DNA of 19,790 nt, from IMG/VR virus record IMGVR_UViG_2872180393_000005, positions 1 through 19,790 of that record; one strand, written 5' to 3'. This DNA comes from a virus. Lineage: Duplodnaviria > Heunggongvirae > Uroviricota > Caudoviricetes. The notes under the pieces are model-generated. The model saw only the letters and a list, made by a program, of their open reading frames with translations, searched no databases and had not been told where the DNA came from. Shown one piece after another: positions 6,016 through 6,698 of the stretch (position 1 is the first letter of the stretch; each line of letters opens with the position of its first letter). The position numbers were made by a program, and so were the translations under genes.

Positions 6016-6184
6016 TTTTGGTTCAACTAAATACAACGTCAGTTTTGAAGAATGGCATGAACTGTTAATGGACTATGCAGAGTTACGTGGTGGCAGTGCT
6101 GCTGATGCTGAAGCATGGCGTGATGATTATGAAGCAGGAAAAACTCCGGTCGAAGCATATTGTGATGAGTGGGGCGATGAATGA
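6008..6184 (+). CDS. Hypothetical small acidic protein, 58 aa (below the ORF-track length cutoff)
   Basis: ATG at 6008 overlapping the upstream stop; MADFGSTKYNVSFEEWHELLMDYAELRGGSAADAEAWRDDYEAGKTPVEAYCDEWGDE; stop overlaps the next ATG as ATGA. Confidence 0.4.
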   Translation: MADFGSTKYNVSFEEWHELLMDYAELRGGSAADAEAWRDDYEAGKTPVEAYCDEWGDE

Positions 6185-6239
6185 GCGAGATTAATTATCA
6201 GGAAGGGCATGAAACGGCGGGGCAAGCAAAAACAGTGGC

Positions 6240-6698
6240 ATGGCGATATCGCTACGTGAAAAAAAAGGCGTTACGGACTTTCAGGGGAAGTGGTGGTCTG
6301 GTGACTGGAAATATGTACCGAAAAAAGAGGATTGTAACGACAGGCCGAACTATGAAATTCAGGCCTTATTCACTGCCCCGCCAGTCCAGGTGACATCAGA
6401 AGGACTGGTTAAAGCCGTGCGCTTTTATGAACAGGTTAAGCGTGAGAATCCACCAGTCGAAACAGGAGCATGGAAAGACGCTGTTGACTGGGTACTCAAA
6501 GAGGCTTGCTGTGCTGTCATTCTGGGTAAAGCCGACAACCTACTAGCATCCAGTAATCAGGTTAGCGAATTAACAATGTGGGTTAAACGACTGGTCAGTC
6601 AACTGAAAAAAGCTAAGCCTGACTGCAAATTACCGGAGAAGGCGATGGATTACCTGAAGCGAAATGGACTGATAAGCGTGGAGGATGTTTTACGATGA
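6240..6698 (+). CDS. Hypothetical protein, 152 aa as annotated; true N-terminus may begin at 6181 through an A_AAA_AAG frameshift
   Basis: Sensible long frame but no Shine-Dalgarno before ATG 6240; overlapping ORF 6181..6393 starts with ATGA coupling and carries A_AAA_AAG at 6261..6267. Confidence 0.5.
   Translation: MAISLREKKGVTDFQGKWWSGDWKYVPKKEDCNDRPNYEIQALFTAPPVQVTSEGLVKAVRFYEQVKRENPPVETGAWKDAVDWVLKEACCAVILGKADNLLASSNQVSELTMWVKRLVSQLKKAKPDCKLPEKAMDYLKRNGLISVEDVLR

Follow-up and report, generated by a model that had tools for sequence, protein, structure and literature searches.

A prophage accessory gene in Shigella, very probably inactivated by a poly-A length change rather than expressed by programmed frameshifting

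Programmed -1 frameshifting in dnaX and in IS3-family elements takes place at A_AAA_AAG or A_AAA_AAA heptamers that are accompanied by stimulators, which may be an SD-like sequence 6-17 nt upstream, a stable hairpin or pseudoknot 5-9 nt downstream, or both. Heptamers without stimulators shift in E. coli at 2- to 10-fold over a background of 0.055% (Sharma et al., 2014; PMC4066793). Homopolymer runs can also slip: a large share of bacterial genomes have a slippage-prone length of about nine, a run of 8 is treated as non-slippery, and frameshift mutations that extend a run to 9 have been termed 'pseudo pseudogenes' (Baranov et al., 2005; PMC1088944). Two further systems are relevant here, namely contingency loci, which have OFF and in-frame versions, and the homopolymer-indel pseudogenes of Shigella and E. 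coli prophage remnants, which appear in PGAP annotation as 'frameshifted' CDS. We compare with these systems a locus in a 19,790-nucleotide stretch of IMG/VR record IMGVR_UViG_2872180393_000005 (hereafter, the window), which is a decaying Shigella prophage with four IS copies or remnants and an ipaH-type gene. The comparison makes it very probable that positions 6181-6698 are a single prophage accessory gene, normally of 171 aa, that has been inactivated by a change in poly-A length and is not a site of programmed frameshifting. The features of the locus are as follows.

6008..6184, plus strand: upstream 58-aa gene, phrog_519 (ORF list, PHROGs); its stop overlaps ATG 6181.
6181..6266, plus strand: 5' part of the probably broken gene, codons 1-28 and the first two bases of codon 29, MSEINYQEGHETAGQAKTVAWRYRYVKK... 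(sequence; annotation of the THO-006 homologue).
6240..6266, plus strand: fortuitous ATG and open stretch MAISLREKK (ORF list; homologue comparison).
6259..6266, plus strand: A8 homopolymer run, the probable lesion; two bases longer than the A6 of the family and one shorter than the in-frame A9 inferred for a Shigella allele (homologue run lengths).
6261..6267, plus strand: A_AAA_AAG heptamer in the zero frame, probably an accidental product of run length (direct reading).
6267..6698, plus strand: 3' part of the same gene, 143 codons and a stop, GVTDFQGKWW...EDVLR, in the -1 frame relative to 6181 (ORF list; codon-for-codon alignment with intact 171-aa homologues).
6695..6778, plus strand: downstream 27-aa hydrophobic ORF, MTWPEAFTTVGIAMAVALVVYSICRWG; its ATG overlaps the TGA of the 6240-6698 frame (ATGA).

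The initial annotation proposed that a slippery heptamer could fuse two overlapping frames at this locus, and the layout that it described can be read directly in the DNA. ATG 6181 shares the bases ATGA (6181-6184) with the TGA of the 6008-6184 ORF, which is also evident from the ORF list. The A8 run is followed by GG, and the codons of the 6181 frame across it are GTG AAA AAA AAG GCG. Positions 6261-6267 are therefore A_AAA_AAG in the X_XXY_YYZ phase of the zero frame of ATG 6181, that is, a slippery heptamer. A -1 slip brings GGC (6267-6269) into register as the following codon, within the 6240-6698 frame, which stays open across all 143 remaining codons; the predicted fusion, ...RYRYVKKK-GVTDFQGKWW..., is 172 aa long, against a first estimate of about 171. 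Past the run, the zero frame continues, as had been noted, with a basic stretch of 41 residues to a stop at 6391-6393, and the zero-frame reading from ATG 6181 is the 70-aa ORF. In these respects the locus resembles dnaX: the heptamer is identical, its phase is right and the -1 frame downstream is open. Both strands of the window hold 21 copies of AAAAAAG, against 6.6 expected from shuffles, and two further copies lie inside the gene, outside the slip phase. The motif alone thus means little; what needs explaining is why it lies where two long frames meet. This coincidence is not chance; it is explained by a gene breaking at the run.

That the operon is genuinely read in the 3' frame is shown by the ATG of the 6695-6778 ORF, which overlaps the TGA of that frame. 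The 6695-6778 ORF may encode a small membrane peptide that is translationally coupled to the upstream gene, and with such coupling the frameshift may be polar on it.

Intact homologues are plentiful. The region is a lambdoid prophage early-region block present in thousands of E. coli genomes, and at the position equivalent to 6181-6698 E. coli THO-006 has a single 171-aa CDS (WP_032290902.1; locus L001, 1870-2385) with the same start and the same 4-nt ATGA overlap upstream as in the window. Its junction reads GTG AAA AAA GAC GTT, an A6 run translated as VKKDV. The initial annotation had named the length of the A run in homologues as the comparison that could overturn its proposal, and the homologues do have an uninterrupted frame from the equivalent of 6181, mostly with A6. 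A 171-aa ORF runs unbroken from that ATG in 69 of the 81 sequences with a conserved start (80 fetched loci and the window), and the run region is in frame, as A6-GAC, A6-GGC or A7-GC, in 77 of 84 sequences examined (83 loci and the window), the other seven being four A8-GGC, one other variant and two without a match. A search of 5.8 billion non-redundant proteins listed 120 cluster representatives, of which 58 have KKG at the junction, 13 KKD and none KKKG; the close homologues P0001 to P0019 likewise have one uninterrupted frame.

The flanks of the run align between the A8 window and the homologues without other indels. It is at this mononucleotide run that the frame breaks, and the length of the run departs from A6 (+2) and from the inferred A9 (-1) by a number of bases that is not a multiple of three. 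These single-frame homologues bear out the proposal that one coding sequence is split between 6181-6393 and 6240-6698, with the A run as the junction. The ancestral sequence of the family is GTG-AAAAAA-GGC/GAC-GTT (V-K-K-G/D-V), with six A's, and the window has A6-GGC with two extra A's. A homopolymer indel, which had been offered as an alternative, is then the best explanation; the ancestral A9 that came with that suggestion is replaced by A6.

The path to A8 may have led from A6 to A9 followed by loss of one A, or through stepwise single-base gains; in either case replication slippage at the run would be the mechanism, and the result would put the last 143 codons out of frame. The A_AAA_AAG heptamer would exist because eight A's and a G happen to fall in that phase. 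The locus is in this respect like known homopolymer-indel pseudogenes: its homologues are single ORFs, the run has changed by a number of bases that is not a multiple of three, sister alleles gather nonsense mutations and deletions, and the surrounding prophage is IS-rich and decaying. Unlike them, the window allele is without a second lesion, and its run forms the best slippery heptamer of E. coli.

The same A8 site is found elsewhere, mostly in alleles with a stop soon after the slip. The exact site occurs in 46 IMG/VR contigs; in 44 of them TGG has become TAG 8 codons past the slip when the -1 frame is read (GVTDFQGK, then stop), and the 3' end is divergent and shorter. In PGAP annotation the A8-TAG alleles of Sanji, W170 and JJ1886, the three inspected, are pseudogenes marked 'frameshifted; internal stop'. 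A single 5' haplotype family accounts for all occurrences of A8, and on near-identical TAG haplotypes the tract reads A6GGC, A6GC, A7GGC or A8GGC. We counted alleles in 5,426 complete E. coli genomes with 88-91-nt allele-specific queries and a band of at least 99% identity, in which each count includes about a dozen partial matches as background. Counted in this way, with that background included, A8-TAG is present in 330 genomes (roughly 320 net of background), A7-TAG in 61 and A6-TAG in 424. For A9-TAG the count is 14, with one full-length match listed, strain SK0189, which is annotated 'internal stop' only.

The TAG sister pseudogene allele, with its stop at codon 37 and shortened 3' end, is carried by more than about 800 of the 5,426 complete genomes, including JJ1886 (sister-allele loci: L002, L003, L219 and L220 in E. 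coli; L084-L129 in IMG/VR), and the sister alleles P0059 and P0066 are among the decayed forms, with TAG and 3' deletions. The polymorphism of its tract (A6, A6GC, A7, A8, A9) is a natural record of homopolymer slippage in neutral DNA. Lengths of 6 to 8 are seen in DNA on the haplotype family of the window, and A9 in the DNA of SK0189; the tract is thus a mutational hot spot. The haplotypes are mosaic: A6-TAG goes with another allele of the upstream gene, and a 3' segment of a different type is common to every TAG allele. At codon 37, a single step separates TGG, and likewise TAG, from the TCG of a related in-frame A6-GGC group, and P0001 has Ser at that position. Haplotypes being mosaic, the order of events stays several-way: A6 to A8, A9 to A8 and TAG first are each compatible with the alleles.

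These distributions bear directly on programmed -1 frameshifting of the dnaX or IS3 type, in which a 172-aa fusion and a 70-aa zero-frame product would both be made as a selected expression strategy. Such a strategy would fit the phase of the heptamer, the 143 open codons, a product that equals a real Shigella boydii protein (see below) and an omega of 0.28 in the downstream part. Against it, the homologues are single ORFs with A6, and the heptamer and two-frame layout are not conserved among them; A8 is limited to one haplotype family, on which A7 and A6GC variants also occur, and nearly all of its IMG/VR copies stop shortly past the slip. The 70-aa product is out-of-frame junk without homologues, and it was not found in a collection of about 15 billion proteins.

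Stimulators point the same way. No Shine-Dalgarno-like motif lies 6-17 nt upstream of the heptamer, in 6244-6255 (CGATATCGCTAC). A downstream stimulatory stem-loop had been suggested as a further check, and the best hairpins 3' of 6261-6267 (-8.9 to -11.6 kcal/mol) are no better than dinucleotide shuffles (z -0.17, +0.58 and -0.98). As a positive control we took the IS3-family site at 4333-4339 (A_AAA_AAA) in the same window, where the downstream hairpin reaches z -1.94 over 53 nt and -2.92 over 83 nt. The locus therefore differs from dnaX and IS3-family sites in having no upstream SD-like element, no significant structure, no conservation and a meaningless zero-frame product. We consider it extremely unlikely that frameshifting is programmed here, and the likeness to dnaX and IS3 elements drawn in the initial annotation does not extend beyond the heptamer, its phase and the open -1 frame.

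The control belongs to one of three IS3-family copies in the window that are more than 99.5% alike, at 1962-3227 (plus strand), 4018-5281 (plus) and 13837-15101 (minus). Each encodes a 100-aa orfA (HTH_Tnp_1) and, in the -1 frame, a 272-aa orfB (rve). The A_AAA_AAA in the orfA frame was read directly at 4333-4339 and is placed by offset at 2279-2285 and 14786-14780 (minus), and a strong hairpin (z -2.9) lies 6 nt downstream of it. These are genuine programmed -1 frameshift sites, and the annotation of the source genome (L133) gives the 4082-5238 copy as a single fused product of 385 aa.

The combination in the window, A8 with TGG and an open 3' frame, is absent from the complete E. coli genomes, where the best match is 98.7% over 150 nt. 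It is found in Shigella. The window is 100% identical to CP026846.1 over 6,459 nt, and the 152-aa product of this allele, annotated from ATG 6240, is P0020, 'bacteriophage protein [Shigella dysenteriae]', with 54 contigs by cluster count. In the protein search, every protein with the diagnostic residues of the window (KWWSG, KKEDC) begins at the spurious MAISLREKKG. All 10 window-type loci with readable DNA are A8. A gapped pattern made from the window on the TGG background retrieved two IMG/VR contigs, both A8, and nothing in metagenomes.

This recurrence leaves practically no room for a homopolymer sequencing or assembly error that conceals a true run of A9 or A6. Long-read assemblies could carry such errors in complete genomes with the allele, and A9 is inferred in one S. 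boydii assembly. The 152-aa product, and hence A8, is however present in 63 indexed blocks of the collection, and 56 of these contain only contigs shorter than 2 kb; it also occurs in the 54 clustered contigs and the two IMG/VR contigs. An assembly error is ruled out by an allele that recurs in so many independent assemblies.

The predicted 172-aa fusion, with KKKG at its junction, is identical to WP_119181822.1 / RIF78481.1 of S. boydii (2 contigs; exact-sequence look-up), and an in-frame allele of the window type therefore exists. This protein is presumably encoded by an in-frame A9 run, in which case the A8 of the window would be one base from an allele that codes for the identical protein. 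KKKG is also present, as an independent second variant, on a different E. coli haplotype (P0124 versus P0123), again with A9 as the probable run. An A6 version of the window-type protein was not found in the collection of about 15 billion proteins.

An OFF allele in 54 contigs beside an identical in-frame protein in two, together with lengths of 6, 7, 8 and 9 on closely related haplotypes, could be taken for phase variation, in which slipped-strand mispairing toggles the gene between A9 ON (172 aa) and A8 OFF within Shigella populations. Contingency loci do resemble the window in having a poly-A tract in the 5' part of the CDS, lengths of 6-9 among close relatives and both OFF and in-frame versions. 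When mismatch repair is functional in E. coli and Shigella, the mutation rates of A8 and A9 tracts are far below those of classical contingency loci, and the tract is short for an enterobacterium with functional repair; phase variation is counted less likely for this reason. Most length variants, moreover, stand in alleles already dead by TAG, so the polymorphism needs no selection, and every DNA-readable window-type locus is A8. We regard toggling of the gene as very unlikely.

A low level of expression from the A8 allele is a separate matter. Like the 'pseudo pseudogenes' (PMC1088944), the window has a frameshift in an A run, slippage would restore the ORF in mRNA, and run length is heterogeneous among strains; their runs, in contrast, are 9, and that of the window, at 8, is below the usual slippage-prone length and below the criterion of at least 9 A/T for transcriptional slippage drawn from that study. 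Selection could in principle maintain such an allele if -1 slippage, insertion of an A by RNA polymerase at A8, or both, restored a low but sufficient amount of full-length protein. Both routes would yield exactly the KKKG protein (junction peptide ...YVKKKGVTDFQGK...), such cases at A/T runs are described (Baranov et al., 2005; PMC1088944), and the 3' frame and coupled downstream ORF are intact. Yet 8 is a non-slippery length in the genomes of that study, unstimulated heptamers stay below about 0.5% (PMC4066793), sister alleles decay freely and nothing shows that the gene matters to the host. Selected rescue of this kind is hardly probable. A small full-length fraction, well under about 1%, may nevertheless persist unselected through ribosomal -1 slippage and some A8-to-A9 slippage in transcripts.

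The window allele itself carries no second lesion and no positive sign of decay. Omega between the window and intact homologues is 0.28, equal to that among intact homologues (0.28) and thus an identical signature of purifying selection, and the lineage-specific branch of the window is too short for a test of decay. Downstream of the run there are eight window-private codon changes, five nonsynonymous and three synonymous. Two of the private nonsynonymous changes, T47K and P120L, strike invariant residues, and another, Q69, is also present in intact P0001. The open frame and the omega of 0.28 have the look of a recent lesion; residual function is still compatible with them. No heptamer is more prone to shift in E. 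coli than A_AAA_AAG, and the product of a -1 slip here matches the S. boydii protein, so some functional expression may be possible. We judge it very unlikely that the Shigella A8 allele is still alive through unprogrammed -1 slippage, A8-to-A9 slippage in transcripts or both, with occasional genomic switching between A8 and A9, at a low or switchable level. Were this true, it would explain the intact 143-codon 3' frame and the coupled downstream ORF.

The protein offers few clues to its role. PHROGs places the fusion protein in phrog_660, of unknown function, and Pfam has no family for it. An AF2 model has a mean pLDDT of 59.6 and is confident only in an N-terminal beta domain (residues ~20-64), of which the strand at 20-31 spans the frameshift site; Foldseek found nothing in BFVD or PDB at E <= 0.001.

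We also considered independent expression of the 152-aa ORF from ATG 6240 and rejected it. The initial annotation had doubted this start for want of a Shine-Dalgarno sequence, rightly so: nothing like GGAGG lies upstream of the ATG (GCAAGCAAAAACAGTGGC). In intact alleles the same ATG is out of frame (GCA TGG CGA), and, going by the model, a product that began there would miss part of the beta domain. The 152-aa ORF and the 70-aa ORF from 6181 are annotation by-products, and gene callers report the former as a 'bacteriophage protein' because of the fortuitous ATG 6240 and the open stretch that follows it.

Other parts of the window record the history of the prophage. The E. coli prophage block has homology to the window only from ~5812 onward, an indication that IS debris has taken the place of the replication-gene side of the prophage. 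Upstream of that point, the ORF at 5451-5786 (plus strand; ~5281-5811) is a C-terminal remnant of another transposase, interrupted by an IS3-family copy; the fragment has no Pfam match, and its full-length 397-aa equivalent in L135 carries DDE_Tnp_1. Adjoining the region of the broken gene downstream, 6808-7095 (minus) is a convergent 95-aa gene, phrog_17872, with a sub-threshold CCDC90-like match, that is conserved in all Shigella loci. A gene segment with an ORF6N domain (antirepressor-like) is present in two diverged copies with ~77% DNA identity over 650 nt, at 7291-7971 (plus) and at 10403-11027 / 10682-11239 (plus), which suggests a tandem or composite prophage. At 16401-18116 (minus) lies a 571-aa IpaH-type type III effector with LRR_TTSS, LRR and NEL E3 ligase domains, which fits a Shigella origin.

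A prophage accessory gene lost to a poly-A length change is an ordinary finding, and standard pseudogene annotation already covers the sister alleles. The locus should be marked as a pseudogene, and the 152-aa 'bacteriophage protein' of S. dysenteriae is a truncated reading of a frameshifted gene. Should the allele, against probability, still be expressed, it would be a further case of a 'pseudo-pseudogene' or of a phase-variable prophage gene with unknown function. A homopolymer indel alone produces a perfect A_AAA_AAG at the junction of two long frames, and conservation and stimulators need checking before recoding is proposed.
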